Assembly: GCA_041674705.1 (NCBI GenBank) | Contig: JBAYVF010000005.1 | Coordinates: 36,645 to 100,644 of the forward strand | Length of the DNA: 64,000 nt | DNA from: Candidatus Omnitrophota bacterium | GTDB lineage: Bacteria > Omnitrophota > Omnitrophia > Omnitrophales > Aquincolibacteriaceae | Direction: 5' to 3' | In this document: positions 6,001 to 43,753 of the stretch, in pieces | Position numbering within the stretch: position 1 is the first letter of the stretch | Layout of the letters: each line of letters begins with the position of its first letter | Notes under the pieces: model-generated | Seen by the model: the letters and a program-made list of their open reading frames with translations, nothing else | Database searches by the model: none | What the model was told of the DNA's origin: nothing | Program-made: the position numbers and the translations under genes

Positions 6001-9000
6001 GCCGACACTGATAAGCAAAGATACAAAAAAAGCCAAGGATGGGCGTAATTACAGGCCTCTGGATGCGGCGATCGGAACGGTTATCCACAACATGAACGAA
6101 TTTTTCCTGAGACGCTTAGCGGTTCCCACGGGATGGCGTTCTATTGAAGACAAAAAAATCGCTGAGGTCATGAAAAAATACAGGTATGACCGGGTTCTTT
6201 ACTTTTTTAACGTACCCCGGAGATTTTTTACGCCTCAAAAGAACCCGTTGGATGCCTATCTGCAGGCCTACGGCAATTATTTCAGTTTGGACCAAAAGGT
6301 CTGGATTTTGAGGGAAACATCTGAAGGGCTTGTTCCTCCCGAGTTTTCTGTTACCGCGCGGCAGAAGGCGAAGCCTGATGATGAGCGTGGTTTTTCATTC
6401 GATTCTGGGAAAGGTTATTGGAGCGAACTTCAGAACGTGATCGATTCGTTCGGAAAAAATTCGGATTGGTCATTTTTGAAAAAACTCGATATCGACGGGG
6501 ATGTTTTGATTCGGGATGCCGTTTTGGCTGGAGATATTCATATTCAATCGGCCTTTGACGGCGTCTTCGCTCTTGACCAAGCTCCCGAAATGCAGCCGTT
6601 GCGAGGTGCCGATGGCCGTATTCGATTGAAAAACATCAAGGTGAGCATCTCGAAGCAGGGAGGGGTCTCTGTCACTCCGCGTTCGGAAATGCGGACGGGG
6701 AATGAGCTTGAGAGAGCCATTGCCCTCAGCCAGTTAGCGCTTTCGGAGCTTAAGCGGGATCTCAAAGAGGCCAAGAAGGCGGGGACTCTGGCCTTAATCC
6801 CGGGTCTGGAGCAAACGATCCGGCAAAAGGTGAATGACATTGTTCGGTATCAATGGACATTGTCGGAAAACACAGTTGTTCAAGAGATCGTTCCGGAAAT
6901 GATGAAGAAAATTTCTGAAAGAGAAATGGCTGTTCAAAAGAAGGATCTGAATAAGGCCGCACGCCTTGAGGTGGAACGGGCCTACTATGCGATAGCTCCC
7001 GTGGCTATTTCCATGGGGGTTGATCCGATCGGCATGTTGCGATTCTTATATGGGATGGTACCTCTTAGCGAAGATCCGAATAAGAAGTTTATGGATATTT
7101 ACGCGGCGTTTTTAACCGGGGACCAGGACAAGATCAAAGCTTCGAACCTTCAGATCATTGGCCGGCCCATCAAGGATCTGGAAACGGCCCGTGAAATCTT
7201 TGCGGAAAAATTCGCTCCCTGGATCGCTGTTTTGCTCGAATTGCCCAAAGAAAAGAGTGCCGGGGTCAAGGTTTTCGCCCTCAAAAATTTTCTAGGGAAC
7301 ATGACAGGTTTTTATTTCGGGAATCGTGAAAAGGCCCTTCTCCCGGAGGCGGGGCGTCTCTTGACTGCGTGGGACAACTGGGTGAATCCCTCCAGAGTTC
7401 TCCCTGTGGCTCCTAGCATGCTTCAAGTGGGCGGGCTTAAGGTCGTAGTGCCGAACGTCTCGAAAACTATTCCGCCGCAGCAGCGCCAATCGTCGGCGCG
7501 TGCCGAGGCGAGAGATACTGAAGTCGATTATTCTGCCATCGAAGAATCCGTACAGCAGTTGAGGTTCGAAGGTGCCGAAGCCCGTCGAAGGACCCTCCTT
7601 GAAAAGCTTGTGGCTTTGTCCCTTGGCGCGCTTTACAAACCAACCCAGGTAGAATTGACGCCGGGAGCATTGAGAGAACTTGGAAAGATCTTCGGGAAAC
7701 TGCCGTCTGAGTTAACGCAAGAATGGTGTTTTGGCTTGATGCTGATGGTGGTGAGCCAGGGCATTCCTGCGAAAGGGGAAATATACGAACGTCCGGAAGT
7801 GCTTATCACGTTCGTTTCCGAAAAGTATCGGCTTGGTGCCGGTAAGGAGATCGCAACGGATGAGGCTTTGGCGAAGTTTATCCAAGCCGAGCAGGAAAGG
7901 ATCTCCAAAGAAGCAGCGAAGATCCGGGTACTTGAAAAACGTAAAAATTCCAGCCGCTCCGAAATCCGGGGTGGCGACAACGGTTATACAATTGAGTCGT
8001 TGACGCCCAGAGAACAGCTGGTTCGGGGGCAGATCAAGCGGGAAATGATAGAAAGAACGGCGTCGCCCAAGATCTTATGGTCCCAGGGAGAATTGAAGAA
8101 TTTAAAGACGCTGGAAATAGAGGCCTTGAAGATCTGGACGCCCCGGTTGTATGTTTCTGGGAAGCCGGATGTCCAAAGAGCCAAAGCCACTCGCGATCGG
8201 TTGCGTGAAAATTATTACAGCTATGACGTGCAGGTTGCGGCGCATATGCTGAAAAAAATGGCCCTTGAACTAAGCTATGAGGAAATCAATGAGCAGCTCA
8301 CCCGGGAGCAGCTAAAAGAAGTGACGGAGGTTTTGAGCGCGGCCGTCCACAATGGTGAGTACCTCCAGGATCACCGGGTGAGTTCTTGGGGGCATTATGA
8401 TCAGCTGAAGCTTATCGCAAGTTCGCCCGCCTACCTTAAAGATATTTTGAGGAAGTTAAAGGCTCTTTATGAACATGAAGCTAGGCTCGCGGCCTCAAAA
8501 ACAAGCCGAGCCGAGGTTCGTGCCGTTCCTGCGATCTCGCAGGCCACTGTCATGAATTCGATGAACAGGGAAGAACGGCCATTCGATCTCCGCAGCGTTA
8601 CGCAGTTATCCTTTTTGAATTACCTCAAACTGCGTTTCGGGATTCTGCCGCAAGCCATGGCGGAAGCGCTTTCAAAGAGCTTCACGAATGTTCGCGGAAT
8701 AGTGAATCGGTTGATGACCCATGCGGGCATTGCGGCGCCGGCTGTGGCCTCCAAGACAGCTGAGAGTGCCAATGCGGTGAAGATGAAATCAGCTCGTGCG
8801 GTCTTTGGTGAAACGACGCTCAACAAGACCTCCGATGCGTTCATTATTGGCGCGACGTTTGCATTCGATCGTTGGGCGATCGCGGCGATGCGCGCGGTTT
8901 TTGGCGATGCTTCGATGGTCGTACTGGTCCGAAATGACGAGGATCGGGCGAAGCTTGCAAAGATGAATGCCGAACTCGCAAAGGCGGGGCGGCCTGAGAT

Positions 9001-9262
9001 CCTGCAAGCAGAGGATTCCAATGGGGTGAAGGCGTTCATGGCTCAGGAGAAAGTTCGTCAGCGCGGTATCGGCCGCAACCTGAGATTTAAGGCGATCGTG
9101 GACGTAAACGATCCGATGGCGATCGCGCTTAAGGAAATGATCCCGGATTTTGTCTGGGTCAACGATGGGAACTTCGGAAGTTTCATGTTCCAGGCCGGCG
9201 AAGCGATCCGGATGTTGGTTGCCGACTTCCAGAAGAATTTCGCCCTCGCCAAATCCGCGTAA
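11..9262 (+). CDS. Giant (3,083 aa) membrane-anchored multidomain protein: 4 predicted TM helices, GNAT-like fold, two UDPGP-family (eukaryote-type UDP-sugar pyrophosphorylase) domains, long helical C-terminal modules
   Basis: Single uninterrupted ORF. LELAGGSGSRLG..IMTS..GHGD..NVDN..EKVGV (aa ~915-1140) and SLDGGLGEKL..PGGHGQ..NGDNVNA..KKGGKDG..FNTNT (aa ~1680-1960) match UDPGP-family signatures. VGPDYEGRYIGSALL (aa ~670) resembles GNAT motif A. Hydrophobic pairs lie at aa ~211-277 and ~434-480. An RBS-like AGGGG (3-7) precedes ATG 14, but the frame is also open to position 2, so the N-terminus could lie upstream. Confidence 0.85.
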   Translation: MMDRMKDSVLEHFKGRSDFAYAPDWEADYEAGMKPYTLINIEGVSHLLTPMGEIFWGQSNTSPKVAFGAQSTSAENTRKLAGIVAALMIHAREEVAPQAPKLHPLETSELFKAWLPETHKLSYADFSKTTEGASGKTYEAWQSNGLEANVLAAYPTAEAALSEFTARAEIRDLDNEASEFFIDDKKPAHEDKQPATIYYHTPKEMTSSPSYGVITFLSGIAVLFVVVGLIAGLVAVAKGMNNPIYGAGDPMARMILWTAGGVLIVAAVIAAWMWHGFSKQKNYEMMGPTTLKGPITPENQPYSFTEQPSKAPEKVGSPERSEARSSLRTERSREAAPVRAEMRNFESMIEKHLSSDFGMKVFWDVVWAEMNRNEGMNPLDPSRTFQQWVLEADHADELVDVVEATGEISLRLKKALDSQKNLAAQEESRRFKNKILFGGAAAAVILANVVFLKIISPGLALHFLSPAVSLLLLALLMPENIYIRKSLSLEDAVRRPKLIEHYSPLILTAFEQARKEMFRIVREESDERERHSPVLEAWVRQTRPDEVKRAEMRDIEADLAQIPEPLRTNVREFLTLGEADAEGWQGSKSLLMRCAKGSLFRFDLGVRTIANGSERWVKIDVTDITPGTDQKEVGFYKFRMGLPVGGKIVAIGEYDMDAERQQEHEPTMRVGPDYEGRYIGSALLVLGLYLAKKYGNESFIARDIVAKGFFDANHMGFSPNGNGWESIFDLVEMPLPKLPSLKPQDPIRVKLNREIAHWKNRYASIAGSKNREYGFNISVRRFEKIDLTMEKVYGDPLLNEEERVIVAKAIAFGKGGIFHFWKELDKAAKRRLLDQLNAIDRIDIRLNIQTSRTGIESLQELFQKFIINGEAGADLKPAPEQIQAPGMFDLADENSPQAMEAIMLGDAARSRGEVAVLELAGGSGSRLGFDKPKIEYPASPIRHKSLGRLRAEKIAAYAQDALRLGAFLTKVPHSGQEAEEMAAGLKKASAKTGIPIPWIIMTSDVTHAQTLAYFNDRMRDGKYFGLIPKDWVRFKEQRVLPVFTDRGEWVLEAKDKISVSGFGHGDAREWIMMDPETQEWLRGVFGIKYVAVANVDNAMLPALGSRAIGYHILATRDNALGAEPLSKVVVDKRGPGEKVGVSVLLDGNDAVIEYNQFTRDILTFKYAYVFENRRIVFYKADDGTYQIYGLSEFNDFVKGTQSLAAMDFKQFETWVSEHLANLNEVPQDAKIYWSGEPYLKERLKGLKLWLNLGSINGLIWTLDSFMNKEHPLAPLPVVVAKGKNVDGFHPENFKPYTKDQEVIKVNKFETMAFHGFLRGPSHGAHILARREDAFSPIKEPEKEGPDNPVEAARIYSERHIRWLRGRVDAEVMPGAVVELADPFAGVDGRELFQRIGKGLFLSEKSQFSVSGPNTRIGQNFRVENSSAFILRHDIESRSQSEVQIGPDVTVKAHVYFRLKGNATVLVDPGVVFNYPVAFVLDDGEYLHIRQELLDEVYRLLSSGNEADISQVFEMYRKSKEASKGKTEESRTDGQKKYDSFLVYKLVESISKRFPDFSPAKKNAQRVLAQIVDWQLKLKPEQKEALARAQDVYLEKYKEPMSPAYAAYVTAMILRADREKLKIAVRGSDGSVIGEQSNFVLASQLTDEEKERLLGAFDYKTIVADSENEPEAAKAFVTIHSLDGGLGEKLVRYVYKQILVDENLVPREEVEFDENGKVKNGAKGTDTGFVIHHEGQRVFVSVAEVKILQMIERVRTGKIGGVGFTPLVNKDSKPSYEKLLDRICLEDRFKSTGDKRTYRQLLQELGAEVNPLYLQQDLPGIDVETNRPATNPDGLWQPGGHGQLGFSFLYKPEDWKPRHDGKFDVLAFVNGDNVNASQLDPSMIGMMARKKMPVVKLTTMAMPIDKKGGKDGLLLENGSLRIPQQMEIADAQAWGKTEENLFIKAGQEEGSKIFGATSVGNQPFNTNTIYVVKDFLFPLLAEVKKLLGDERYYAEVIAPTLISKDTKKAKDGRNYRPLDAAIGTVIHNMNEFFLRRLAVPTGWRSIEDKKIAEVMKKYRYDRVLYFFNVPRRFFTPQKNPLDAYLQAYGNYFSLDQKVWILRETSEGLVPPEFSVTARQKAKPDDERGFSFDSGKGYWSELQNVIDSFGKNSDWSFLKKLDIDGDVLIRDAVLAGDIHIQSAFDGVFALDQAPEMQPLRGADGRIRLKNIKVSISKQGGVSVTPRSEMRTGNELERAIALSQLALSELKRDLKEAKKAGTLALIPGLEQTIRQKVNDIVRYQWTLSENTVVQEIVPEMMKKISEREMAVQKKDLNKAARLEVERAYYAIAPVAISMGVDPIGMLRFLYGMVPLSEDPNKKFMDIYAAFLTGDQDKIKASNLQIIGRPIKDLETAREIFAEKFAPWIAVLLELPKEKSAGVKVFALKNFLGNMTGFYFGNREKALLPEAGRLLTAWDNWVNPSRVLPVAPSMLQVGGLKVVVPNVSKTIPPQQRQSSARAEARDTEVDYSAIEESVQQLRFEGAEARRRTLLEKLVALSLGALYKPTQVELTPGALRELGKIFGKLPSELTQEWCFGLMLMVVSQGIPAKGEIYERPEVLITFVSEKYRLGAGKEIATDEALAKFIQAEQERISKEAAKIRVLEKRKNSSRSEIRGGDNGYTIESLTPREQLVRGQIKREMIERTASPKILWSQGELKNLKTLEIEALKIWTPRLYVSGKPDVQRAKATRDRLRENYYSYDVQVAAHMLKKMALELSYEEINEQLTREQLKEVTEVLSAAVHNGEYLQDHRVSSWGHYDQLKLIASSPAYLKDILRKLKALYEHEARLAASKTSRAEVRAVPAISQATVMNSMNREERPFDLRSVTQLSFLNYLKLRFGILPQAMAEALSKSFTNVRGIVNRLMTHAGIAAPAVASKTAESANAVKMKSARAVFGETTLNKTSDAFIIGATFAFDRWAIAAMRAVFGDASMVVLVRNDEDRAKLAKMNAELAKAGRPEILQAEDSNGVKAFMAQEKVRQRGIGRNLRFKAIVDVNDPMAIALKEMIPDFVWVNDGNFGSFMFQAGEAIRMLVADFQKNFALAKSA

Positions 9263-9267
9263 CGCAG

Positions 9268-9366
9268 GACATAGTACTTTGTACTTGGTACATAGTACTT
9301 GGCATATAGCAAAAAACTTCCCCCATTTTGTTTTGCTCCAAGTACCATGTGCTATGTACTATGTGC
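9268..9366. repeat. Heptamer-array hairpin, ACATAGT/ACTTGGT word family, copy 1
   Basis: Left arm 9268-9310 reads acatagt actttgt acttggt acatagt acttggc atatagc. Right arm 9335-9366 is the imperfect complement. Loop ~24 nt. Starts 6 nt after the giant-ORF stop. Confidence 0.75.
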
Positions 9367-9437
9367 TTTCATTTCAGTCCCTTCATTGCTAAAATACTCT
9401 CCAAGTTTGTAACCCGTTGAATCAAGGGGGGATAGCA

Positions 9438-10652
9438 GTGTTTCCATCCGTCAAAGAGCAGCTAGAGGTTTTTAAAGAAAATCTCGTCGAGCTTATCTCC
9501 GAGCGTGAGCTGACGATGAAGCTTGAAGCTTCCCTCAAGAATAAATGTCCTCTTCGTATCAAATACGGCGCCGATCCTTCGGCCCCCGATCTTCATTTGG
9601 GGCATACGGTCCCTCTTCGTAAACTTCGACAGCTTCAGGATTTAGGTCATCTCGTCGTTTTCATTATCGGCGATTTCACCGCGCGTATTGGGGATCCTTC
9701 CGGGAAATCGGAAACGCGGCCCATGCTTTCCGAAGAGCAGGTTCAGACGAACGCCAAAACCTATCAGGAGCAGGTGTTCCGCATCCTCGATAAAAAGAAG
9801 ACGGAGGTGCGCTACAACTCCGAATGGCTGGGTACCATGAGTTCCGCGGATTTTCTCAAACTCACGGCGCAGTACACGGTCGCCAGGATCCTTGAACGCG
9901 ATGATTTTTCAAAGCGCTATAAATCAGGGGAGCCCATTGCGGTCGTGGAGCTTCTTTATCCCCTCATGCAAGGCCATGATTCCGTGGAGATCGAATCCGA
10001 TATCGAGATCGGCGGAACGGATCAAAAATTCAATCTTCTGGTCGGACGGGAACTTCAAAAGACCGATGGCCAGGAGCCTCAGGTTGTGATGACGCTTCCT
10101 CTGATCGAAGGGTTGGATGGCGTTCAGAAGATGTCAAAAAGCCTCGGAAATCATATTGCGCTGAAAGACAGTCCCCGGGAAATGTTCGGCAAGGTGATGT
10201 CAATCCCGGATGCTCTGATGGAACGGTATTACCGGTACGCGGCCGCGCTTTCTCCCAAAGAAGTCGAAAAGATCCTCGCAAGTCTAAAAAACGGAGAACT
10301 CCATCCTCGCGACGCCAAGGCGCAACTCGCGGAGCGGATCGTGTCTCTTTTTCATTCGGAAGCGGAAGGAAAAAGCGCGCGCGAAGAATTCGATGAGATC
10401 TTCAAGAATAAAGGCATGCCGGATGAGATCCCCACCGTCAAGATCGGTCAAAAGACGATCGATATCGTGAGCCTCCTGGTCGAGGCGGGGCTTGTGACGA
10501 GCAAATCCGAAGCTCGTCGTCTTATGGAACAGGGCGGGGTGAAGATCGGACACGAAAAGATCACGGACCCGAAGGCGGTCATGACGATCGGAGCGCCGTT
10601 TGTTCTCCAGTGCGGTAAGCGGAAATTCGTAAAGATAGTAAGTAGTATGTAG
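9438..10652 (+). CDS. tyrS: Tyrosyl-tRNA synthetase
   Basis: HIGH-type motif (DLHLGH), KMSKS (KMSKSLGN) and a C-terminal S4-like domain. The ORF track starts at TTG 9417; GTG 9438 is preferred because AAGGGGGG sits at 9424-9431. Confidence 0.93.
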
Positions 10653-10722
10653 TAGGTAGTATGTGGGGAAGGGAACGGCGGAACAGATTTTTGGCTTTTA
10701 CCTATCACCTACTACCTACCCC
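10637..10722. repeat. Heptamer-array inverted repeat, AGTAAGT/AGTATGT/AGTAGGT word family
   Basis: Left array 10637-10668 overlaps the last tyrS codons. Right array 10696-10722 (acctatc acctact acctacc) is its imperfect complement. Only a 9-bp core (gtagtaggt) pairs perfectly. Confidence 0.6.
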
Positions 10723-10747
10723 AATATGATTTTTCATAGAAAGATCC

Positions 10748-11731
10748 ATGGATAAAACACACTCCGGTGCTTTAATACAGTTCCAAAGTGTCTCCAAGAA
10801 CTACGGGTCTTTCCATGCGCTTCGCGATGTCTCCTTTGACGTTAAGGAAGGGGAGATCGTCGGATTCCTGGGGCCGAATGGCGCGGGCAAGACCACGGCG
10901 ATGCGCATTCTTTCCGGATTTTTTCCTCCCTCAAGCGGCCGTGTTTTTGTCTGTGGCACGGACATGTCAAAACATCCCCACAAGGCGAAGCGTGCCATTG
11001 GCTATCTTCCGGAAACGGTGAGTCTCTATCCGGATATGAAGGTGATCGAATATTTAAAGTTCGTGGCAAAGCTTAAAGGCGTGCCGGCCCATGAACTGGA
11101 CGGGCATGTCCGGAGCAAAATGTCGTTTTGCGGGCTTCTCGAGAACGGGCACCGTTTGATCGGGAGACTTTCCAAGGGGTACCGGCAGCGTGTCGGGCTT
11201 GCCCAGGCGCTTATGGGTGATCCTCAGGTCCTGGTCTTGGATGAACCGACGACCGGGCTTGATCCGACGCAGATCAAGGAGATCCGGGAGCTGATCCGCG
11301 CGCTTGGGCAGAACCGCGCCGTGATCCTTTCAACGCATATCCTGCCTGAGGTTTCGATGCTTTGCAGCCGCGTCATGATGATCAATCAGGGCGAGATCCT
11401 GGCAAGCGGGACTGTTCCGGAGCTTGCCTCCTGTCTGAAAGACCGCGAGGCGATCCACATCAAGATCAAGGACAAAAAAGACCAGCACCGCGCGCTCGGG
11501 ATCCTGGGTTCGATGCCGGGGGTCGAGTCCCTGGAGGTCGCGGAGGAAGTCAGGGGAGAGACTTTTATTACTTTTGAAACTTCGCCGGACGAGGACTTGC
11601 GGCCCCGGATCATGAAAAAATTTTTGGAGCAGGGGATTTCACTCACCGAGATCCAACGCTTGCAGTTGTCGCTCGAGGATATTTTTCTGGGGCTTTTGAA
11701 AAACGGGAAAGTGGGGAGACGTTTTCCATGA
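10748..11731 (+). CDS. ABC transporter ATP-binding protein (GldA-like, ABC-2 type)
   Basis: Walker A GPNGAGKTT, signature LSKGYRQR, Walker B LVLDEPTTGLD. Confidence 0.9.
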   Translation: MDKTHSGALIQFQSVSKNYGSFHALRDVSFDVKEGEIVGFLGPNGAGKTTAMRILSGFFPPSSGRVFVCGTDMSKHPHKAKRAIGYLPETVSLYPDMKVIEYLKFVAKLKGVPAHELDGHVRSKMSFCGLLENGHRLIGRLSKGYRQRVGLAQALMGDPQVLVLDEPTTGLDPTQIKEIRELIRALGQNRAVILSTHILPEVSMLCSRVMMINQGEILASGTVPELASCLKDREAIHIKIKDKKDQHRALGILGSMPGVESLEVAEEVRGETFITFETSPDEDLRPRIMKKFLEQGISLTEIQRLQLSLEDIFLGLLKNGKVGRRFP

Positions 11732-12504
11732 GAAAAGTCCTAACGATCGCGCGTAGGGAGTTCAGTAGCTGTTTTCACTCCTGGCTGGGGGTGCTCGTCG
11801 CGTCGCTTTTTTTCCTGGCCGCAGGGATCTTTTTTGTGATCCTGGTGCTGAACTATTCGAAGATCTCCATGAACCCGGAGCAGTACGGGCTCTCGAATTT
11901 TTCGGGGATCAATCAAACACATTATATCTTCGGGTCCTTTTTTTCAAACCTGAGCATTATGCTTCTTTTTCTGGTGCCGATCCTCACGATGCGTTCCTTC
12001 GCGGAAGAAAAACGGCAAGAAACGCTGGAGCTTCTCTTTACCTATCCTTTGTCCGATCTTGAGATCGTGGCCGGAAAACAGTTGGGGATCCTATTGTTTT
12101 TTGGGGCGCTTCTCTTGCCCCTGGCGGGATATTTGGCGGTGTTCCATGGAATTGGCGGAGAATTCGATTGGGGGCCGGTGGGGCTTGGATTTCTCGGATT
12201 CTGGCTTTTGGGGGCAGCCTACTCGGCGGCCGGGGTCTTTATCTCGAGCCTGACAAAAAATCCGATTGTGAGCGCGTTCGGAACTTTCAGCGTTTTGCTC
12301 GTGTTCTGGATCTTTGATTGGGTGGATGAGGTCGTGACGGGGCCCTGGGGGCATATCTTTTCCGAGCTTTCGCCGCTTGCTCATTATAAAAATTTCGCGC
12401 TGGGGATCCTGGATGTCCAGGATGTGGTTTATTTTGGTTTCTTTTTCTTTTATTTTCTTTTTCTCACGCTCCGTTCGACCGAAACAAGAAATTGGAAAAG
12501 CTGA
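11728..12504 (+). CDS. ABC-2 type transporter permease (GldF-like)
   Basis: Multi-TM protein. ATGA start/stop overlap with the upstream ATPase gene. Confidence 0.8.
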   Translation: MRKVLTIARREFSSCFHSWLGVLVASLFFLAAGIFFVILVLNYSKISMNPEQYGLSNFSGINQTHYIFGSFFSNLSIMLLFLVPILTMRSFAEEKRQETLELLFTYPLSDLEIVAGKQLGILLFFGALLLPLAGYLAVFHGIGGEFDWGPVGLGFLGFWLLGAAYSAAGVFISSLTKNPIVSAFGTFSVLLVFWIFDWVDEVVTGPWGHIFSELSPLAHYKNFALGILDVQDVVYFGFFFFYFLFLTLRSTETRNWKS

Positions 12505-12511
12505 ACAATAA

Positions 12512-12933
12512 GTTCGGAGTCTGGAGCTGGGAGTTCGGAGATTGAAACATGGAAGATAAATTTTCATTCGAGAATCTGTTGGTCTATAGGAAAGCGTTGG
12601 ATTATGTGGATTGCGTCTATGAATGGACCCAGGTATTCCCAAAAGAAGAAAAGTTTGGACTGACAAGCCAATTTCAGAGGGCAGCGCAGTCCATAGCGTT
12701 AAATATCGGGGAGGGAAGCGGCGGCACCAAGGCCGAATTCCAGCATTTCGTAAAGATAGCCAGACGATCTGTAAGGGAATGTATTGTTTGTACAACGCTT
12801 GCAAGAAGAAGGAATTATCTATCTGAAAAGGATGAGGCGAAATCGCGAGAAAGAGCTTCGGAATTATCAAAAATGCTGAGTGGGCTGTTTAAGGCTATTT
12901 GATGCTCCGAACTCCAAACTCATGACTCAAAAC
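12512..12933 (+). repeat. GTTCGGA-word hairpin cassette enclosing the four-helix-bundle ORF
   Basis: The 29-nt arms 12512-12540 (gttcgga gtctgga gctggga gttcgga g) and 12905-12933 are complementary at 23/29 positions (hand count). They abut the ORF at 12549-12902. Confidence 0.8.
12549..12902 (+). CDS. Four-helix-bundle protein (23S rRNA intervening-sequence protein / Avd-like family)
   Basis: 117 aa. LVYRKALDY..LTSQFQRAAQSIALNIGEG..F..IARRSVRE pattern typical of the PF05635/TIGR02436 family. GGAG RBS lies in the flanking repeat arm. Confidence 0.8.
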   Translation: MEDKFSFENLLVYRKALDYVDCVYEWTQVFPKEEKFGLTSQFQRAAQSIALNIGEGSGGTKAEFQHFVKIARRSVRECIVCTTLARRRNYLSEKDEAKSRERASELSKMLSGLFKAI

Positions 12934-12938
12934 TAAAA

Positions 12939-14351
12939 ATGAGACAGTTTTTTTTAAAGTTCCAGATTTTGTTCGAGGCGGCGATCCTTTTGGCAACGCT
13001 GACGCTGGTTTATGTGGTGATCCAGCCCTTTCATGAGCGGTGGGACATGACCCGTGAAAAGATCTATTCGCTTCCTCGGGCGACCACCGGAGTTTTGCGC
13101 GATTTGAAAGATCATAGAGTCGATCTTCTTCTTTTCTTTCCACAGGATGATCCCACGCGAAAAGGGCTGGAAGTTTTTCTGAAAGAGTGTAGCCGGCATC
13201 ACCCGGATTTTCATTTCGATTTCTATGACCCGAACCGGAGGCCGCAACTTGCGCGTAAGTTCAATGTCTCGGTCGCCAAGACGGTGATCTTCCGCTCCGG
13301 TGATCGGGAAGAACGTCTGATAGGTCCGACCGAAGAAGGCTTTACGAATGCGTTCCTGCGGCTACTCCATCCCAAGGATCTGGATGTCTGCTTCGTGTCG
13401 GGTCATGGAGAGGTGGAGCTCGATGATGAAACGACCGGCGGGTACCTGCGTTTCAGAGACACACTTTTAGGATATAACGCCAAGGTCCACGGGATCGTGC
13501 TCGCGCGTGACCATGTGCCGGATGCCTGCCAGGTAGTGGTTGTGGGCGGTCCGCGTTGGGATTTGACGGCCGAAGAGTTTGCGGATCTGGACAAGGCCTT
13601 CCAAAAAGGGAAGGGTGTGCTGCTTTTGGTCGATCCGATGGACCCGGGTGCGGGAGGTGCATTCACGGAATTTGCGAAAAAATATGGTGTGGCGCTTGGG
13701 CAGAACGTGATCGTGGATAAGGTCAGCCGTATGGTGGGCGGAGATTTTTTGATGCCGCTCGTGAGTCAGTATCTCGTGACGAATTCCATCACGAAGACCA
13801 TGAAACAAGCGACTTTTTTTCCGTTGGTGCGTACGGTGCAACCGTCCGCGGATGTTATCCCGGGGCTTGAGGTGACGCCTCTGGCCATGACCAGCGAGGG
13901 GAGTTGGGGAGAAACGGATCTTTCAGCCCTTGAGAATGGGAATGCGGCGTTTGATATGAAAACAGATATCGCGGGGCCTTTGCCGGTGGCCGTGGCGATC
14001 GAGAAAACCAGCGATAAGCTGTCAGCGTTAAGCGGTAAGGAAAAAACCTCTAACGCTTATAACTTAGCGCTTTTCGCTGGAGGCCGGATGATCGTTGTGG
14101 GGGACGGGGATTTTTTGACGAATGGCTATCTGGATCTTTCCGGGAATAAGGAGCTGGGACTGAATATGATCCGCTGGCTCGCCCGCGATGATCGTTTTAT
14201 GGACGTGAAGCGTCCGGAGCTTCGTTTTAAGCCGCTCCTGCTTGACGTGCCGCATCGGACCCAGCTGATCATCCTTTTGCTCGGAGTCTATCCCTTGGCG
14301 CTCCTTGTGCTTGGTGGGACCTATCTTGTGATCCGTTCCAGGACGTCATGA
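12939..14351 (+). CDS. GldG-like ABC-transporter auxiliary protein
   Basis: N- and C-terminal TM anchors. Sequence and operon position resemble the GldG / ABC-type uncharacterized transport system family. Confidence 0.75.
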   Translation: MRQFFLKFQILFEAAILLATLTLVYVVIQPFHERWDMTREKIYSLPRATTGVLRDLKDHRVDLLLFFPQDDPTRKGLEVFLKECSRHHPDFHFDFYDPNRRPQLARKFNVSVAKTVIFRSGDREERLIGPTEEGFTNAFLRLLHPKDLDVCFVSGHGEVELDDETTGGYLRFRDTLLGYNAKVHGIVLARDHVPDACQVVVVGGPRWDLTAEEFADLDKAFQKGKGVLLLVDPMDPGAGGAFTEFAKKYGVALGQNVIVDKVSRMVGGDFLMPLVSQYLVTNSITKTMKQATFFPLVRTVQPSADVIPGLEVTPLAMTSEGSWGETDLSALENGNAAFDMKTDIAGPLPVAVAIEKTSDKLSALSGKEKTSNAYNLALFAGGRMIVVGDGDFLTNGYLDLSGNKELGLNMIRWLARDDRFMDVKRPELRFKPLLLDVPHRTQLIILLLGVYPLALLVLGGTYLVIRSRTS

Positions 14352-14428
14352 TTCTCCTCATTGAAAAAAATAAACGGGTAATCATGACAGCCCAAGTCAC
14401 CATCCAAGAAAAGAAAATAAAGACTTGG
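14347..14428 (+). repeat. Conserved ~80-nt intergenic element with short ORF start, copy 1
   Basis: Shares catgattctc and an identical 38-mer (14366-14403 = 52703-52740) with copy 2. Contains ATG 14384 opening MTAQVTIQE... Confidence 0.8.
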
Positions 14429-15489
14429 ACGTCATGAAGCTCGTCCGGACATTCGTTTTTATCCTTCTTTTTGCCGCCGTTGCGACGATCTATTTTTTTC
14501 AGGTGCGTCTCGCCAAACAAACTCTCGCGATCATTCCCGACGAAGTGAATCGAACGGTCGCCATCTCAAAAAACGATCCAATCGATCGCGTGGAATTGTG
14601 CGACAACGTCCAAAAGACAAAGATCAAGCTTCGAAAAGTAAATGGGGCCTGGGAGATCGAGCGGCCCGTTCACTACCCGGCGGAGAACCAGGTCGCGGAG
14701 GGATTTGTGGTCGCGGCCCGGATGGCATCCCAACAGCCGCGTTTGCGGGCTGAGAAAGAATGGGGAGAGTATGGGCTCGAAAAGCCTGAGCTCGAGATCC
14801 TGTTTGGACTTCCCGGGAAAAGAGCGGTAACCCTTCTGATCGGAGCCCAAGCGCCCGTCGGAAAGGCGATTTTTGCCCGGTGGGCGGAGGAGCGTGGATT
14901 TTTTCTCCTGCCTCCCGAAATGAAAGCGATGTTTCGTCAGACGGTTTACGGGTTACGTCAAAAGCGGTTGTTCCGTACTCCGGCCGACAGGATCCAGAAG
15001 ATCTCGGTGGAAATGGGGGAATACAGTTGTCAGTGGAAAAAGGACGGCGGGACATGGTATTGGCTTGAACCTGTTCAAAAATTAGGCCAGAAAGTCCCGG
15101 CCGGGCGCATCGATCTTGTCGTGGGAGGCCTGGAGAGCCTTCATGTAAGAGAATTTCTGGACAGCAATAAGAAGTCCAAAGCCGAGCTCGGATTTTTCAT
15201 GATCCATGACCTTATTCAGGTCGAAGCTGAAGATGGCCCGCCTGGAAAACGGGACGAGGCTCGCCCGTCTTCGCAGGGCGGCAAGAAGGAAACGTTTTAT
15301 TTCGGGAATGAGGTCCCGGAGAAGAATGCCTATTACGGATTTCGCGAAGGCGAGGATGTGGTTTTTCTTGTGGATCGCGTCAATGTGGTAGAGCTTTTTG
15401 ATTTTATACGCAAGATCCAGGCCGAAGATCTAAAACCCGAGACCAAGGATCTGAGCCCGAAGACCGGGACCGTGGAACCCAAGGTATGA
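14425..15489 (+). CDS. DUF4340-like membrane-anchored protein
   Basis: N-terminal TM helix. Follows the gldG-like gene, as DUF4340 proteins commonly do. Start is TTG 14425 or ATG 14434. Confidence 0.6.
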   Translation: MDVMKLVRTFVFILLFAAVATIYFFQVRLAKQTLAIIPDEVNRTVAISKNDPIDRVELCDNVQKTKIKLRKVNGAWEIERPVHYPAENQVAEGFVVAARMASQQPRLRAEKEWGEYGLEKPELEILFGLPGKRAVTLLIGAQAPVGKAIFARWAEERGFFLLPPEMKAMFRQTVYGLRQKRLFRTPADRIQKISVEMGEYSCQWKKDGGTWYWLEPVQKLGQKVPAGRIDLVVGGLESLHVREFLDSNKKSKAELGFFMIHDLIQVEAEDGPPGKRDEARPSSQGGKKETFYFGNEVPEKNAYYGFREGEDVVFLVDRVNVVELFDFIRKIQAEDLKPETKDLSPKTGTVEPKV

Positions 15490-16178
15490 GTATCCCGCAG
15501 GCCATTAAAGACCTTCGCAATTCCATGGACAAGACGGCTTTGCAAGCGGGACGTGATCCGGGAGATGTCCGGCTTGTTCTTGTGACGAAGACCGTCGAGC
15601 CCAAGCGCGTTCTGGAGGCCTATCAGGCGGGCGAAAGGGATTTCGGAGAGAATCGTGTCCAGGAGTGGCAGGAGAAGAAGGACGCGCTCCCGTCGGATGT
15701 CCGTTGGCATTTGATCGGGCATCTCCAAACGAACAAAGTAAAACATGTCATCGGCCAGGTCGCGCTCATTCATTCGCTGGACCGGTTCGAGCTCGCGGAC
15801 GCGATCGAGAAACAGGCAAAGGTTAAAGGAATCGCTGAAGTGCCGTGTCTCGTGCAAGTGAACATGTCCGGGGAAGAAAGTAAGTTTGGTCTTGATCCGG
15901 CCCAGGTCGAAGATTTCGTAAGGCAAATGTCTTCCCGGCCGTCAATCAAGCTCCTCGGGCTTATGAGCATCGGGCCGCTTACGGAAGATGAGGGGAAGAT
16001 CCGGGAATGTTTCCGAAAGACCCGGGAGCTTCGGGACGAGCTGAAGAAGAAATTCGCGCAATATGGCTGGGGCATCCTTTCCATGGGAATGTCGGCTGAT
16101 TACAGAATAGCTATTGAAGAAGGCGCAAATATGCTTAGAATTGGCTCTTTAGTCTTTCCGAGGGATATCAAAAAATGA
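15486..16178 (+). CDS. yggS: YggS-family pyridoxal-phosphate homeostasis protein
   Basis: KTVEPKRV..FGENRVQE..HLIGHLQTNK motifs of the YggS/PROSC barrel. Confidence 0.9.
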   Translation: MSIPQAIKDLRNSMDKTALQAGRDPGDVRLVLVTKTVEPKRVLEAYQAGERDFGENRVQEWQEKKDALPSDVRWHLIGHLQTNKVKHVIGQVALIHSLDRFELADAIEKQAKVKGIAEVPCLVQVNMSGEESKFGLDPAQVEDFVRQMSSRPSIKLLGLMSIGPLTEDEGKIRECFRKTRELRDELKKKFAQYGWGILSMGMSADYRIAIEEGANMLRIGSLVFPRDIKK

Positions 16179-16987
16179 AGACACTAGGCAATAAGAAGAT
16201 CGGCGTGATCGGCGTGGGGAACATGGGCGCTTCGATCCTGGAAGGTGTGCTCGCTAAGAGTCTTACAACCCCTTCCCGTGTATGGGTTTATGACAAGGCT
16301 TTGGCGAAGGCCAAGTCCTTTGCTCGCCGGAACCGCGTGAATCAGGCATCTTCGATCGTAGAATTGTTAAAGAAAACGGACGTGGTGCTTTTGGCCATGA
16401 AGCCGCAGGATTTTGTGACCTTCGCGCTAGAACATCGGTTGTCCTTTAGGCCCGGGCAAAACGTTATTTCGATCCTGGCCGGAATGACGACGGAAAAGAT
16501 CACAAAGGCTCTTGGCAAAAATGTCACGGTGGTTCGAGCCATGCCGAATCTGGGAGCGAAGGTGGGGCAATCGATGACCGTGATCTGCGGAAAAAACAGA
16601 ACAGCGCTTTCTTGGGCTGAAACGCTTTTTGCCGGCTGCGGGGAAGTGGTGACGCTCCCGGAAAAGAGATTGGACCTTGTGACCGCGATGAGCGGCAGCG
16701 GACCGGCCTATTTTTTTCATCTGATGGAACTTTTGACGGATTTTGGCGTGAAACAGGGGCTTCCTGCCAAGGTTGCCCAAGCGCTAGCCGTTCAGACGGG
16801 ATTAGGGGCCGCGCTTCTGGCAAAAGGCTCTGAGGAATCCTGTGGAGAGCTGCGGCAGCGGGTAACCTCCAAAAAAGGAACGACGGAGGCCGCTCTGAAA
16901 ACTTTACAGCGTGGAAAATTCGGGAAGATCTTTCAGCGAGCGCTTGGGGCCGCGGTGAAGAGGAGTCGGGAATTACGGAAAGGATGA
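16175..16987 (+). CDS. proC: Pyrroline-5-carboxylate reductase
   Basis: IGVIGVGNMG dinucleotide fold and a P5CR C-terminal region. Classic yggS-proC-yggT neighbourhood. Confidence 0.9.
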   Translation: MKTLGNKKIGVIGVGNMGASILEGVLAKSLTTPSRVWVYDKALAKAKSFARRNRVNQASSIVELLKKTDVVLLAMKPQDFVTFALEHRLSFRPGQNVISILAGMTTEKITKALGKNVTVVRAMPNLGAKVGQSMTVICGKNRTALSWAETLFAGCGEVVTLPEKRLDLVTAMSGSGPAYFFHLMELLTDFGVKQGLPAKVAQALAVQTGLGAALLAKGSEESCGELRQRVTSKKGTTEAALKTLQRGKFGKIFQRALGAAVKRSRELRKG

Positions 16988-16996
16988 GTTTTGGAT

Positions 16997-17056
16997 GTCA
17001 TCCCCGAATGTTTTAGTCGGGGATCCAGCCTGGATTCCCGCTTCCGCGGGAATGAC
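16997..17056 (+). repeat. Structured 60-nt repeat (twin-hairpin element), copy 1
   Basis: gtcat-CCCCGA-loop-TCGGGG-atcca..tggat-TCCCGC-loop-GCGGGA-atgac, 10 nt after the proC stop. Confidence 0.8.
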
Positions 17057-17091
17057 AATGTTAACAATAACCCGTAGGTAGGGAGAATAAA

Positions 17092-17394
17092 ATGTTCATT
17101 TTCGGGATCGTGTTCCAGGGATTGGCCATGCTCGTGAACGGGATCTGTACGATCCTCTATTGGCTGCTTTTCGCGAGGATCCTCGTCTCGTGGTTTCCCG
17201 TGGACCCTTTCTCGAGTCCGATGCGGTTTTTGATCCAGGTCACGGACCCGATCCTGGAACCGTTGCGCCGGCTTCCGATCCGGATCGGGATGATGGATTT
17301 TTCGCCGCTTCTCGCTTTTTTCATGCTTTATATTACGAACAAGATCCTTGTCACCATTCTTTTAAAGCTTGCTTACCAATTCGGCGGAGGCTGA
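17092..17394 (+). CDS. yggT: YggT family membrane protein
   Basis: 100 aa, two hydrophobic helices, YggT-like sequence and gene context. Confidence 0.8.
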   Translation: MFIFGIVFQGLAMLVNGICTILYWLLFARILVSWFPVDPFSSPMRFLIQVTDPILEPLRRLPIRIGMMDFSPLLAFFMLYITNKILVTILLKLAYQFGGG

Positions 17395-17497
17395 CCCCGT
17401 TAGAAATTCAACCAATGATCTTTTGAGAACATGCCGTGGCAGGTAATACGAAATGGAAGTTAGTGACAGGCGATCCAAAATTGTATTTCTAACGGGG
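17395..17497. repeat. 13-bp perfect inverted repeat pair CCCCGTTAGAAAT / ATTTCTAACGGGG enclosing 77 nt
   Basis: Arms 17395-17407 and 17485-17497. Begins right after the yggT TGA. A third partial copy cccgttaga lies at 17513-17521. Confidence 0.8.
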
Positions 17498-17602
17498 CAA
17501 GTGACCACCTGTCCCGTTAGACATTTGATGAGGCGAAAGAATCAAGCAGGTGTTCGAAGTTTATATAAAGAAAAGTTCTTGCGAATATAAAGGAGAAAAT
17601 TA

Positions 17603-18457
17603 ATGTCTAACGGGATGAAACGTACCCAGAAACCTTCGAACGAACTTCTTGAGAAGATCGATGCCTGCGTCGCGGCGATCCGTAAAGAAACGGATTTTAT
17701 TCCCGAGATCGCGCTGGTCCTTGGCACGGGGCTCGGGAATCTCGCGGGGCGCGTGAAGGCGGAAAAGGTTCTGACGTATGACAAGCTGCCGCATTTTTCG
17801 AAGTCGACCGTGGAATCCCATAAAGGGCAGCTCGTGCTCGGGGAACTTTCCGGAAAAAAGATCGCGGTGATGGAAGGACGATTCCATTTTTATGAAGGGT
17901 ACTCGCTTGAGGAGGTGACGTTCGGGGTGCGCGTGCTCCGCGAGCTGGGGGCAAAGATCCTGATCGTTTCAAACGCGGCCGGCGGATTGAATTTGAGCTA
18001 CAAAAAAGGAGAGATCGTGATCATCACCGACCAGATAAATTTTATGGGGGTGAATCCGCTGATCGGCCCTAATCTTAATAAGCTGGGGCCCCGCTTTCCG
18101 GATATGTATGAGCCTTATTCCAAGCGTTTGAACGACCTGACACTTGCCGCGGCGAAAGAAGTCAAAGTCCCGGTGAATCAGGGGGTTTATGTCGGAGTGA
18201 CGGGGCCGTGCCTTGAAACCCGCGCGGAGTACCGGATGATGCGTAATTTCGGCGCAGATCTTGTGGGGATGTCCACGGTGCCGGAGGTGATCGTGGGGGT
18301 GCACATGGGGATGGAGATCCTGGGCTTGAGCATTGTGACAGACACTTGTGATCCGGACCATCTCGAGCCATGCAATATCCAGGAGATCATCAAGACGGCG
18401 AACGAAGCCGGGCCGAAGTTAGACAAACTTATTACAGCCGCGATTTCCAAGTTCTAA
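17603..18457 (+). CDS. punA: Purine nucleoside phosphorylase (PunA/PNP-I type)
   Basis: STVESHKGQLVLG..GRFHFYEGY..SNAAGG..GMSTVPE closely parallel PunA-family sequences. Confidence 0.88.
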   Translation: MSNGMKRTQKPSNELLEKIDACVAAIRKETDFIPEIALVLGTGLGNLAGRVKAEKVLTYDKLPHFSKSTVESHKGQLVLGELSGKKIAVMEGRFHFYEGYSLEEVTFGVRVLRELGAKILIVSNAAGGLNLSYKKGEIVIITDQINFMGVNPLIGPNLNKLGPRFPDMYEPYSKRLNDLTLAAAKEVKVPVNQGVYVGVTGPCLETRAEYRMMRNFGADLVGMSTVPEVIVGVHMGMEILGLSIVTDTCDPDHLEPCNIQEIIKTANEAGPKLDKLITAAISKF

Positions 18458-18524
18458 GTGCCATGTACTATGTACCAAGTACGGAGGCATAACGAGTACT
18501 TAGCATATAGTACATAGTACTTAG
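18458..18524. repeat. Heptamer-array hairpin, ACATAGT/ACTTGGT word family, copy 2 (opposite orientation)
   Basis: Arms 18458-18482 and 18496-18524, ~17/20 complementary by hand. The 18-mer gtacttggtacatagtac at 9281-9298 recurs as its reverse complement at 18465-18482. Confidence 0.8.
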
Positions 18525-18535
18525 TGAAAGAAAAA

Positions 18536-21364: not shown

Positions 21365-21397
21365 AACCAAAGGGATGGTCCCATTTTTAAAAGAGAT

Positions 21398-22993
21398 ATG
21401 TCGTTCCATGTAAGAACCCCAAAGACCTTCCTGAAAAAAGTGCTGGTCGGTCTCGTCCTTTTCTCGCTCGGAGCTTTCGCCGCCTACCTGCTTCCTTTCC
21501 TGATACCCTCTTCCGGGATTTCGGATCCTTGGGTCCATCATCCGCTGCTTCCGATCCTTGTGATGACCGTGATCTTTGTAGCGGCCTATAAATCCACCGA
21601 ACGGTGGGTGAAGAAATTCCTCGAGAAATATTTTTTTCATAAGAAAACATTCGCCCAGATGACTCTGATGGATCTGGCGGGCGACCTGGCGGTCAATCTG
21701 GACCTCCAGGAGATCGCAAACCTGGTGGTGAACACGTTCGGAGAGGTGCTGCAATTAAAGACCGTGGCCTTGCTCGTTCCGGACTTGCTTCAGAATAATT
21801 TTGAGGTCGCATCAGCTTATGGATGGACGATCTCGGCTTCCAAGCGGGTCCGTCTCGCGGCTGAGACGCCGCTTTTGAGAATGATCCATCAAACGGGGCC
21901 GCATGTCTTGATGCGCGGGCCGGTCCTTCAGAGCCTTACATGGCAGGAAGCGAATGCGCTGGCGCGTGATCTTGATTCTTTGCAGGCCGCCTGGATCATT
22001 CCGCTGTTCGTTAAAGGAGAATTGGCGGGGCTTCTCGCGTTCGGGGCGCTTGTGCCGGATACGGTATTTGACCAGGGCGACTTCCATTTTTTCAGGGAAT
22101 TTGCGGCGGCGATCGCGCCTTGTGTTCATAATGCCATGGTCGTGAAGCGGTTGAGGCAGTTTAATTTTGAGCTCCAGGATACCCAGTCCCAGTGGGTCCA
22201 GAAGACCAAGTTGAACGCGATCGAAAAACTAGCCGCCGGGATCGCCCATGAGATCCATAATCCTCTGGCAATTATTTCCGGAAAAGCCCAAGTCCTGCTC
22301 ATGCAGAAGGGCCCCAAGCAACTGGAGCCCAATGTTCAGGACGCGCTCAATACGATAGTGAAGCAAACGCGACGGGCGGCCGATATAACAAGGAAGCTTT
22401 TGATGTATTCTCAAGGTTCCCGGGGACCGCAAGAGTGGATCTCGCTGGAAAGAGTCCTGGATGAGACGCTTTCACTTCTCGCGTATCAGGCTTCGATCGA
22501 TAAGATCGAGATCGTAAGGAACCTGGATCCGGAGTTGCCGGCGTTTTTTGCAAATATGCAGGAGATCCGGGAGATTTTCCTCAATCTGCTTCTGAATGCC
22601 GTGGAGGCCGTGGGGTCGGAAGGGAAGATCGTGGTGGAATTGAAGTATCACCGCGATGAAGAGTTGATCGAGATCGTGTGTTCGGATACGGGGAAGGGGA
22701 TCCCGGCCGAGCATCTTGATAAGGTGTTTAATCCTTTTTATACCACGCGCCATGAAGCGGTGGGACTCGGGCTTTTCGTGACCAAGCAGATCGCGCATCG
22801 TTACGGCGGTTCGATTCGCGTTGAAAGCCAGGTGGGGATCGGCAGCATGTTCATTCTTCAGCTGCCCTATGTCGCGGAAACGGTTCGCCTTCAGCGGGCC
22901 TCGTCTTCGCCACAACAAGGAAAAGAAGCGGCGCGAAATTCGGAAGCAAAAAGGACCGGTGCGACGGTTGCGGGTGCTCATACAGAGCCATGA
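21398..22993 (+). CDS. Sensor histidine kinase (TM + GAF-like + HisKA + HATPase)
   Basis: H-box AAGIAHEIHNPL, N box LLLNAVEA, G boxes DTGKGIP / GLGL. N-terminal hydrophobic helices. Confidence 0.88.
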   Translation: MSFHVRTPKTFLKKVLVGLVLFSLGAFAAYLLPFLIPSSGISDPWVHHPLLPILVMTVIFVAAYKSTERWVKKFLEKYFFHKKTFAQMTLMDLAGDLAVNLDLQEIANLVVNTFGEVLQLKTVALLVPDLLQNNFEVASAYGWTISASKRVRLAAETPLLRMIHQTGPHVLMRGPVLQSLTWQEANALARDLDSLQAAWIIPLFVKGELAGLLAFGALVPDTVFDQGDFHFFREFAAAIAPCVHNAMVVKRLRQFNFELQDTQSQWVQKTKLNAIEKLAAGIAHEIHNPLAIISGKAQVLLMQKGPKQLEPNVQDALNTIVKQTRRAADITRKLLMYSQGSRGPQEWISLERVLDETLSLLAYQASIDKIEIVRNLDPELPAFFANMQEIREIFLNLLLNAVEAVGSEGKIVVELKYHRDEELIEIVCSDTGKGIPAEHLDKVFNPFYTTRHEAVGLGLFVTKQIAHRYGGSIRVESQVGIGSMFILQLPYVAETVRLQRASSSPQQGKEAARNSEAKRTGATVAGAHTEP

Positions 22994-36403: not shown

Positions 36404-36405
36404 AT

Positions 36406-36508: not shown

Positions 36509-36529
36509 TACAATTAAGGAGATGAATTC

Positions 36530-37120: not shown

Positions 37121-37122
37121 TT

Positions 37123-43747: not shown

Positions 43748-43753
43748 CGTAAC

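Follow-up and report, generated by a model that had tools for sequence, protein, structure and literature searches.

Inverted heptamer arrays enclose a small gene in an ABC-transporter operon

We analyzed a stretch of 64,000 nucleotides (nt) from contig JBAYVF010000005.1 of a Candidatus Omnitrophota bacterium, referred to below as the window. In an ABC-transporter operon of this stretch, a 434-nt segment lies between a gldF-like gene and a gldG-like gene. It contains a small open reading frame (ORF) enclosed by two inverted arrays of tandem heptamers, and the encoded four-helix-bundle protein belongs to the family found in the intervening sequences (IVSs) of 23S rRNA genes. An earlier sequence-only reading of this DNA had proposed an IVS-like cassette at this position. 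We followed up this proposal with profile, structure and fold analyses, orthologous junctions and a metagenome survey of the family. The features of the locus are as follows.

11728-12504, + strand: gldF-like ABC-2 permease gene, the upstream host gene, with its TGA stop at 12502-12504
12505-12938, + strand: inserted segment of 434 nt, made up of left arm, ORF and right arm, and missing from empty orthologous junctions
12511-12547, + strand: left arm, four tandem AGTNNGG-type heptamers and a short tail (Tandem Repeats Finder, inverted repeat, fold)
12537-12540, + strand: GGAG in the innermost heptamer, the likely Shine-Dalgarno sequence (from the sequence)
12549-12902, + strand: gene for the four-helix-bundle protein of 117 amino acids (aa) (PF05635/TIGR02436), with ATG start and TGA stop
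12898-12934, + strand: right arm, complementary heptamers (inverted repeat, fold, duplex z -8.2)
12939-14351, + strand: gldG-like ABC transporter auxiliary gene, the downstream host gene (Pfam ABC_transp_aux, 7e-24)

The gldF-like gene matched Pfam ABC2_membrane_2 at 1.5e-14 and TIGR03518 (GldF) at 3.3e-36, the latter under the equivalog cut-off, and 22 orthologues were found within Omnitrophota. The gldG orthologues begin with the same MRQFF/MKQFF peptide whether or not the cassette is present, and the stretch from the right arm to the ATG at 12939 holds no Shine-Dalgarno sequence for the gldG-like gene. Scans for promoters and terminators found neither type of site on the + strand of 12505-12938.

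The encoded protein belongs to the 23S rRNA IVS family

The ORF product is a secure member of PF05635 (E 2e-30, 105.5 bits against a cut-off of 33.8, all 106 model positions covered) and TIGR02436 (E 4e-28, 97.8 bits against a cut-off of 24), as had been predicted from its translation. Profile searches found PF05635 as its sole domain and no match to a transposase. With phmmer, the protein matched Xcc0516 (PDB 2GSC) at 3.2e-15. An AlphaFold model of the monomer, based on 48 homologues, consisted of four long helices with a confidence (pLDDT) of 96.9. Foldseek ranked 2GSC first (TM-score 0.93, root-mean-square deviation about 1 Å), followed by BT_0352 (2RLD, TM-score 0.80) and then by Avd, the accessory protein of diversity-generating retroelements (DGRs), at a TM-score of about 0.78, both alone (4DWL) and in the DGR ribonucleoprotein (8UB7). 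The crystal structure of Xcc0516 is a homopentamer, as cited in PMC4990558. Helix 2 contains the motif R-x3-S-x3-N-x2-E-G (R44, S48, N52, E55, G56), which has been noted for the PF05635 family (PMC3936711). In the 48-sequence alignment, S48, N52, E55 and G56 are invariant and R44 is nearly so. The protein is basic, with an isoelectric point of 9.05. The family is large, with 28,396 clusters (50% identity) reaching E <= 0.001.

Both this protein and Avd, which is part of an RNA-protein complex, are basic. The homologous four-helix-bundle fold shared with Avd would fit an orphan or degenerate DGR accessory gene, and weak matches to PF22296 (22.1 bits), NF033474 (20.9 bits) and PHROG 3206 (1e-5) point the same way. 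However, the scores lie far under the cut-offs of 40 bits for PF22296 and 80 bits for NF033474. No reverse transcriptase was found among the neighbours in the window or the syntenic loci, and no direct repeats resembling the template and variable repeats of DGRs were found within 9 kb on either side (4000-22000). Moreover, Avd genes have not been described within heptamer hairpins. Viral contigs yielded only one weak relative, at 39% identity, and no sign of a phage vector. A DGR remnant, which the sequence-only reading had likewise discounted, is effectively refuted by the sub-cut-off scores and the missing reverse transcriptase and repeats, and we regard it as highly improbable.

A six-frame search with hidden Markov models found no second PF05635 member in the window or the syntenic loci. 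PADLOC gave no match. Rfam found no rRNA at the cassette, and neither the hairpin nor the cassette matched any Rfam family.

The arms are predicted to pair into a long stem around the gene

The left arm reads AGTTCGG AGTCTGG AGCTGGG AGTTCGG AG from 12511, with a period of 7 called by Tandem Repeats Finder over 12511-12540. In the frame shifted by one, 12512-12540 reads GTTCGGA GTCTGGA GCTGGGA GTTCGGA G. The right arm, whose start falls in the stop-codon region of the ORF, reads GCTCCGA ACTCCAA ACTCATG ACTCAAA ACT. A hand count of 12512-12540 against the reverse complement of 12905-12933 gave identity at 23 of 29 positions, and the coordinates and content of both ORF and arms were as first reported. 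An inverted-repeat search lengthened each arm to 37 nt, placing the pair at 12511-12547 and 12898-12934 with a complementarity of 76%.

The two spacers flanking the ORF form a duplex of -38.7 kcal/mol, compared with -12.8 +/- 3.2 kcal/mol in 1000 shuffles (z -8.2), none of which equalled it. The arms therefore pair better than shuffled sequence, a comparison on which the earlier proposal had been made to depend. The minimum free energy (MFE) and centroid folds of 12495-12950 both close a long-range stem of 4+5+3+11 base pairs (bp), in which the segments are parted by 2x2, 2x2 and 3x3 internal loops; the region as a whole has a fold z of -2.6. The base of the stem lies 6 nt past the gldF-like stop and its end 4 nt ahead of the gldG ATG. 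GGAG at 12537-12540, which the last word of the left arm had been expected to supply as the Shine-Dalgarno sequence, stands 8 nt ahead of the ORF's ATG and is buried when the stem is closed.

Insertion, loss and age at the gldF/gldG junction

We compared the junction with its orthologues (loci numbered with L), in contigs that are metagenome-assembled genomes or metagenome assemblies. In seven of them (L011, L017, L019, L025, L026, L031 and L032) the stop of gldF and the start of gldG overlap as TGATG, with the sequence AAAAGCTGATG. The two genes overlap likewise in L013 and L029, with other stop codons, and seven further empty junctions have a spacing of 6-11 nt. The flanking genes are thus directly adjoining in relatives that lack the cassette, in line with the view that it sits inside one operon. 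The cassette occurs at the same junction in six distinct versions (the window, L001-L004, L005-L008, L009, L010 and L016), the other five encoding proteins 84-91% identical to the window ORF. It is absent, or present only as a remnant, at about 20 other orthologous junctions. In L024, the last codons of the ORF, AAGGCTATTTGA, are followed by a run of right-arm heptamers, and L018 retains a decayed right arm. These empty junctions, which the sequence-only reading had asked to be sought, and the decayed remnants establish that 12505-12938 is an insertion. The arms of the orthologous cassettes vary from about 4 to 9 heptamers, and the stem closes in the MFE folds of all six versions, so that the flanking complementarity is kept.

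The closest protein match (91%) comes from L009 (GCA_000315315.2, AMWB02119464.1), a fully syntenic Omnitrophota-like locus. The L016 ORF (4828-5178) has a GTG start and one in-frame stop at codon 41 and is otherwise conserved; the stop is either a sequencing error or the mark of an early pseudogene.

With the L016 pairs excluded, as the in-frame stop breaks the codon alignment, the ratio of nonsynonymous to synonymous divergence (dN/dS) of the ORF was 0.05-0.11. Its synonymous divergence (dS) between lineages, 0.68-1.6, equalled the dS of the neighbouring genes in the corresponding pairs. Inheritance of the cassette at this site has therefore been vertical from the split of these lineages onward. 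On a neighbour-joining tree of GldF and GldG, presence of the cassette is patchy; the tree is star-like, dS is near saturation and the host tree is poorly resolved. The patchy distribution is best read as repeated loss, and one ancient gain followed by many losses is favoured over several gains because the dS of cassette and flanks is equal. The cassette is old and not a recent invader. Its arms have kept their word and complementarity despite near-saturated synonymous sites, which indicates constraint on the arms. Constraint thus acts on the arms as well as on the protein. Of the earlier description of an IVS-like selfish cassette, the IVS-like insertion is supported, while "selfish" has to be tempered in view of vertical inheritance (dS about 0.7-1.6) and strong purifying selection.

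The same architecture surrounds homologues across metagenomes

To see how other members of the family are arranged, we scanned metagenomes with an alignment of homologues and obtained 80 loci at 51-88% identity. The flanks were analyzed for 80 genes that had 90 nt or more on each side, together with 77 control positions of the same span in the same loci. The duplex z of the flanks was <= -2 in 56/80 genes and <= -3 in 46/80, compared with z <= -2 in 0/77 controls (Mann-Whitney p about 1e-18), so that many family members do sit in heptamer hairpins. In both flanks, the autocorrelation had a sharp maximum of 0.41 at lag 7, compared with about 0.27 elsewhere. GTTCGGA was found upstream in 48/80 and TCCGAAC downstream in 55/80, and the opposite word orientation was rare (5 and 2 of 80). 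The usual words were AGTTCGG upstream and CCGAACT downstream. The word shifts clade by clade along the protein tree, from AGTTCGG to CGTTCGG, AGTNAGG, AGTCTTT and others. The upstream word is the complement of the downstream word, so that whole repeat units in effect covary; this match is seen in the distinct word pairs of these clades and of the carriers described below.

The surrounding genes vary among these loci. The upstream neighbour has the orientation of the gene in 65/69 cases and the downstream neighbour in 62/75, and the arms adjoin the stop and start codons of the neighbours, with median gaps of 2.5 and 10 nt. GGAG stands 4-12 nt ahead of the start codon in 44/80 cassettes. In the downstream flanks of two loci, L106 and L066, the last ORF codons and the right arm are repeated (e.g. 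GATGATTATAAATGCTCCGAAC twice), either through partial tandem duplication or because a neighbouring cassette has left a remnant.

A 23S rRNA intervening sequence and cultured carriers

On plasmid AZO_p2 of Azospirillum lipoferum 4B, we found a homologue inside a 23S rRNA gene (Rfam LSU, 2145 bits). Inverted CAGAGGA/CGGAGGA heptamers on either side of it make up a long stem that is all but perfect (fold z -8.6). Compared with 23S rRNA of E. coli, the flanks place the insertion site in helix 45. The stem-plus-ORF geometry noted at first sight as IVS-like is thus matched by a bona fide IVS of identical design. Picosynechococcus PCC 7003 carries the same cassette design between cas10 and cmr3, and Anabaena sp. 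90 carries it between cas6 and cas4; a further example lies on a plasmid of Nostoc punctiforme. Its occurrence inside cas operons probably explains why the PF05635 family is listed as 'CRISPR-associated' (PMC3936711, PMC10910872).

In Xanthomonas, a homologue 86% identical to the crystallised Xcc0516 lies between accB and accC, with inverted GGGAATC-type arrays on its flanks (duplex z -3.3). GGGAATC is highly enriched in Xanthomonas intergenic regions, with 70-75 convergent (inverted) pairs, in a study that makes no mention of a four-helix-bundle gene (PMC4692102). In L122 (2425-2500), from Xanthomonas, the Xcc0516-type frame is open upstream through the GGGAATC array, and the annotated lengths of Xcc0516-type database proteins range from 109 to 129 aa.

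The gene and its arms therefore move as a unit into unrelated contexts, helix 45 of 23S rRNA included, and gene junctions and rRNA loops both gain and lose this unit.

The cassette resembles the 23S rRNA IVSs of Leptospira, Coxiella and Azospirillum in several respects. The protein is of the same PF05635/S23p family, the ORF lies within a terminal complementary stem, and the termini are tandem heptamers, GACAGAT in Coxiella (PMC4990558) and CAGAGGA/CGGAGGA in Azospirillum. Both kinds of element are sporadic among relatives. The Coxiella IVS begins with the tandem GACAGAT heptamers and RNase III cuts at the first repeat; excision of IVSs by RNase III is known in Coxiella, Leptospira and Salmonella (PMC4990558). 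However, this copy lies at an mRNA gene junction rather than in helix 9, 25 or 45 of rRNA, the stem around it is shorter and has interruptions, and RNase III excision, demonstrated for rRNA IVSs, would apply to it by analogy. In addition, the Coxiella ORF has been reported as decaying and untranslated, whereas this ORF is under purifying selection. The element would work like a 23S rRNA IVS, yet it sits outside the location by which such IVSs are defined. Apart from the Coxiella IVS, the open-access literature that we searched gave no paper connecting PF05635 genes with heptamer arrays on their flanks.

Gene-less heptamer hairpins in the window

About nine short-loop heptamer hairpins without a gene were found in the 64 kb, mostly at gene junctions, with fold z of -1.9 to -7.3. 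They are listed below.

57081-57159, + strand: gene-less hairpin with the cassette word, AGTTCGG ... CCGAACT, and a 19-nt loop, a counterpart of the cassette with a short loop (-32.2 kcal/mol, z -4.1)
9265-9371: gene-less heptamer hairpin at a gene junction
10632-10723: gene-less heptamer hairpin at the tyrS-abcA gene junction
14007-14078: heptamer hairpin inside the gldG-like ORF, in frame (fold z -4.3)
18441-18529: gene-less heptamer hairpin at a gene junction
about 37120-37183: gene-less heptamer hairpin between convergent genes, followed by a T-run
38994-39061: gene-less heptamer hairpin at a gene junction
43747-43817: gene-less heptamer hairpin at a gene junction
45369-45460: gene-less heptamer hairpin at a gene junction

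The hairpins other than 57081-57159 carry AGTACTT, AGTAGGT, CGTACGG, GGCGGAG, AGCGNTA and further words. The left array of the tyrS-abcA hairpin (10632-10668) overlaps the end of tyrS and provides its stop codon. This hairpin was found in L009, L012 and L019, was absent from L013, L016, L018 and L026, and was not evident in L020. The gldG hairpin (AGCGATA AGCTGTC AGCGTTA AGCGGTA ... TAACGCT TATAACT TAGCGCT TTTCGCT) encodes DKLSALSGKEKTSNAYNLALFA, and its site is a hypervariable indel, absent from L005, L011, L019 and L028 and reaching up to about 60 aa in L010. Other GldG orthologues have, at this indel, peptides resembling translated GACGGNG/CCGCCNT hairpins. Around the cassettes of other loci, 28 gene-less arrays with the word of the resident cassette were found in 249 kb of flanking sequence.

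These hairpins bring in a second reading, in which they are the primary dispersed element and the four-helix-bundle protein is their trans-acting partner. This would resemble the system of repetitive extragenic palindromic (REP) sequences and their REP-associated tyrosine transposases (RAYTs), known as REPtrons and REPINs. The partner would serve propagation, maintenance or regulation, the cassette being the 'autonomous' form and the gene-less hairpins the non-autonomous one. The well-folded hairpins of the window, one of them with the cassette word, their variable presence between relatives, the one in frame in gldG, and the 28 resident-word arrays are consistent with it. So is Xanthomonas, where the arms of the cassette are made of a genome-wide enriched heptamer (PMC4692102). 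The protein is basic (isoelectric point about 9) and has the Avd fold as seen in the RNA-bound DGR reverse transcriptase complex. In the possible analogy with REP/RAYT, a gene is flanked by inverted short repeats that may also be dispersed without a gene in intergenic spaces of co-directional operons, with presence/absence polymorphism. However, a RAYT is an HUH Y1 transposase of known chemistry, whereas no nuclease or recombinase motif can be recognised in the four-helix-bundle family. Tandem heptamer arrays take the place of the single palindromes of REP, and the cognate relationship is putative. Most hairpins of the window carry other words than the cassette, which is the sole family member in 64 kb. 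The same-word arrays near cassettes could be local duplications, their counts come from gene-bearing loci only, and a permutation test of word matches beyond the dominant AGTTCGG was underpowered, with 3 usable cassettes. We consider this reading tentative. It overlaps with the IVS-type cassette and does not exclude it.

Short palindromes able to insert in frame into protein-coding genes are known as Rickettsia palindromic elements. The in-frame gldG hairpin looks similar, although the sequences are unrelated and the comparison concerns the gene-less hairpins, not the cassette.

Heptamer arrays of a comparable kind have been described elsewhere. These include the unexplained intergenic arrays GGGAATC in Xanthomonas and GGGGA(T/C)T in Nostoc (PMC4692102), TAACTGA in Beggiatoaceae and cyanobacteria (PMC4679880) and the heptanucleotide elements of Geobacter (PMC2700814). 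Like the arms of the cassette, they are tandem, often form inverted pairs, often end at a start codon and vary in length between close relatives, and the Xanthomonas word is identical to that in the arms of the XCC0516-type cassette. They differ in that they were published as G-quadruplex or regulatory motifs, with no mention of the four-helix-bundle gene.

Other features of the window

The neighbours of the cassette, in the window and in the syntenic loci, are tyrS, an ABC ATPase gene, the permease gene, the GldG-like gene, and genes for DUF4340, YlmE-like and ProC proteins. A giant ORF (11-9262, >3083 aa) extends past the start of the window; one orthologue, on a contig of the European Nucleotide Archive, is called at 7830 aa with adenylate-kinase domains, and another matches pyruvate phosphate dikinase/phosphoenolpyruvate-utilizer domains. 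The only Rfam matches in the window, a tRNA (57253-57326) and RNase P RNA (class A, 57942-58426), lie just downstream of the gene-less AGTTCGG hairpin.

A different palindromic element lies at 34399-34460 (GTCATCCCCGAACGTTTTAATCGGGGATCC...GGATTCCCGC...GCGGGAATGAC), and a related copy was found in the tyrS-abcA spacer of L005 (about 4070-4150). The two copies point to a second family of dispersed repeats in these genomes, resembling REPs or miniature inverted-repeat transposable elements. At 36394-36518, a hairpin of 9-nt repeats (AAAGGCTAA-type) has 48-nt arms with 73% complementarity and lies between two + strand ORFs. At 31215-31247, the end of another ORF (30655-31251) is overlapped by a direct array of AGACTAC-type heptamers that has no inverted partner.

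Proposed mechanism and alternatives

Taken together, we favour an IVS-type cassette, a promoter-less PF05635 gene between inverted AGTNNGG arrays that was anciently inserted at the gldF/gldG TGATG junction, with a rough probability of 0.6. The cassette would be transcribed by read-through from the host operon. In the transcript, the arms would zip into a stem of about 23 bp with the ORF looped out, and the gldF stop and gldG start would be brought within about 10 unpaired nt (6 + 4). This would restore in space the stop-start closeness of the uninterrupted operon. The figure matches the 6-11 nt of natural empty junctions, suggesting that the insertion may do the operon almost no harm. The analogy with rRNA IVSs makes the stem a likely substrate of RNase III, and cleavage would free the cassette mRNA. 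The innermost GGAG would act as the Shine-Dalgarno sequence of the ORF and would be masked while the stem is closed. The basic, Avd-like protein probably binds heptamer arrays, as RNA or DNA, both in its own cassette and in gene-less hairpins with the same word.

Several points weigh against this interpretation. We infer RNase III trimming, of this or any mRNA-embedded copy, from the rRNA elements. The outer two-thirds of the stem are broken by 2x2 and 3x3 internal loops, which makes it a less ideal RNase III substrate than the perfect stem of 25+ bp in Azospirillum. The 80 metagenome loci were the best tblastn matches and represent one subfamily, so that the proportion of 70% may not hold family-wide (>28,000 clusters). 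A gene that benefits the host would be expected to stay in place vertically for long under purifying selection, no less than a selfish one. Finally, the raw energy of the duplex and the pattern of wobble pairs each bear on a further alternative.

As for the energy, in a scan of window pairs with the same geometry the site ranked first of 9081, though marginally (-38.7 against -38.2 kcal/mol), the runners-up being G+C-rich coding pairs. The unusual signal is the composition-corrected, colinear helix rather than the raw energy. Chance or slippage repeats around an ordinary small host gene, with a stem without function, would fit such a marginal lead in raw energy. This reading is contradicted by the duplex z of -8.2 against shuffles, by arms that are conserved and pair across orthologues with near-saturated synonymous sites, and by the recurrence of word and polarity at homologues in unrelated contexts, with 0/77 among the controls. 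We give it almost no weight.

As for the wobble pairs, a test in 45 stems for G.U pairs in the sense strand gave 11 sense against 22 antisense-type mismatches (p 0.08), and provides no support for selection specific to the sense RNA. A role at the level of DNA is therefore still a rival. The arrays would then be cruciform or single-stranded DNA hairpins for a recombinase or the replication machinery, the gene a passenger and the RNA structure incidental. Besides the lack of an excess of sense-strand G.U pairs, the number of heptamers varies among orthologues, as replication slippage would give, and the junction was emptied (almost) cleanly in several lineages, as for inserts flanked by inverted repeats. 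However, the strong co-orientation with the upstream gene (65/69), the strict polarity with the purine arm first relative to the ORF, the use of the inner heptamer as Shine-Dalgarno sequence and the processing of the homologous rRNA elements by RNase III (PMC4990558) point to a function in the transcript. We regard a purely DNA-level element as unlikely.

Implications for the family

To our knowledge, the ORF of large 23S rRNA IVSs has been without a known function for decades and has been discussed almost only in the context of rRNA. The tandem heptamer arrays of Xanthomonas, cyanobacteria and other bacteria are likewise unexplained. Our results show that the IVS of rRNA is one particular form of a far more common cassette of operon junctions, such as gldF/gldG, accB/accC, cas10/cmr3 and cas6/cas4. 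In these, the gene travels together with inverted heptamer arrays of a conserved word. The arms would set the stop and start codons of the neighbours side by side, which suggests how a polycistronic mRNA could take up an insertion with almost no harm and with no ribozyme involved.

It is possible, at well below even odds in our estimation, that PF05635 proteins and tandem-heptamer hairpins belong together in a single genetic system, so far unrecognised, across many phyla. If so, the protein would be the cognate binder or propagator of arrays with the matching word, and the ORF-in-hairpin cassette the autonomous unit. The ORF-bearing 23S rRNA IVSs and the 'CRISPR-associated' 23S_rRNA_IVP genes would be manifestations of this system, as would the Xanthomonas GGGAATC arrays, the cyanobacterial arrays resembling short tandemly repeated repetitive (STRR) sequences, and the gene-less and in-frame hairpins of Omnitrophota. 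With the structure of Xanthomonas XCC0516 solved, these hypotheses are testable in culturable organisms. The class of cassettes is very widespread and barely described, and it is the class-level pattern that is of interest; since the family is large (28,396 clusters), the phenomenon touches many genomes.

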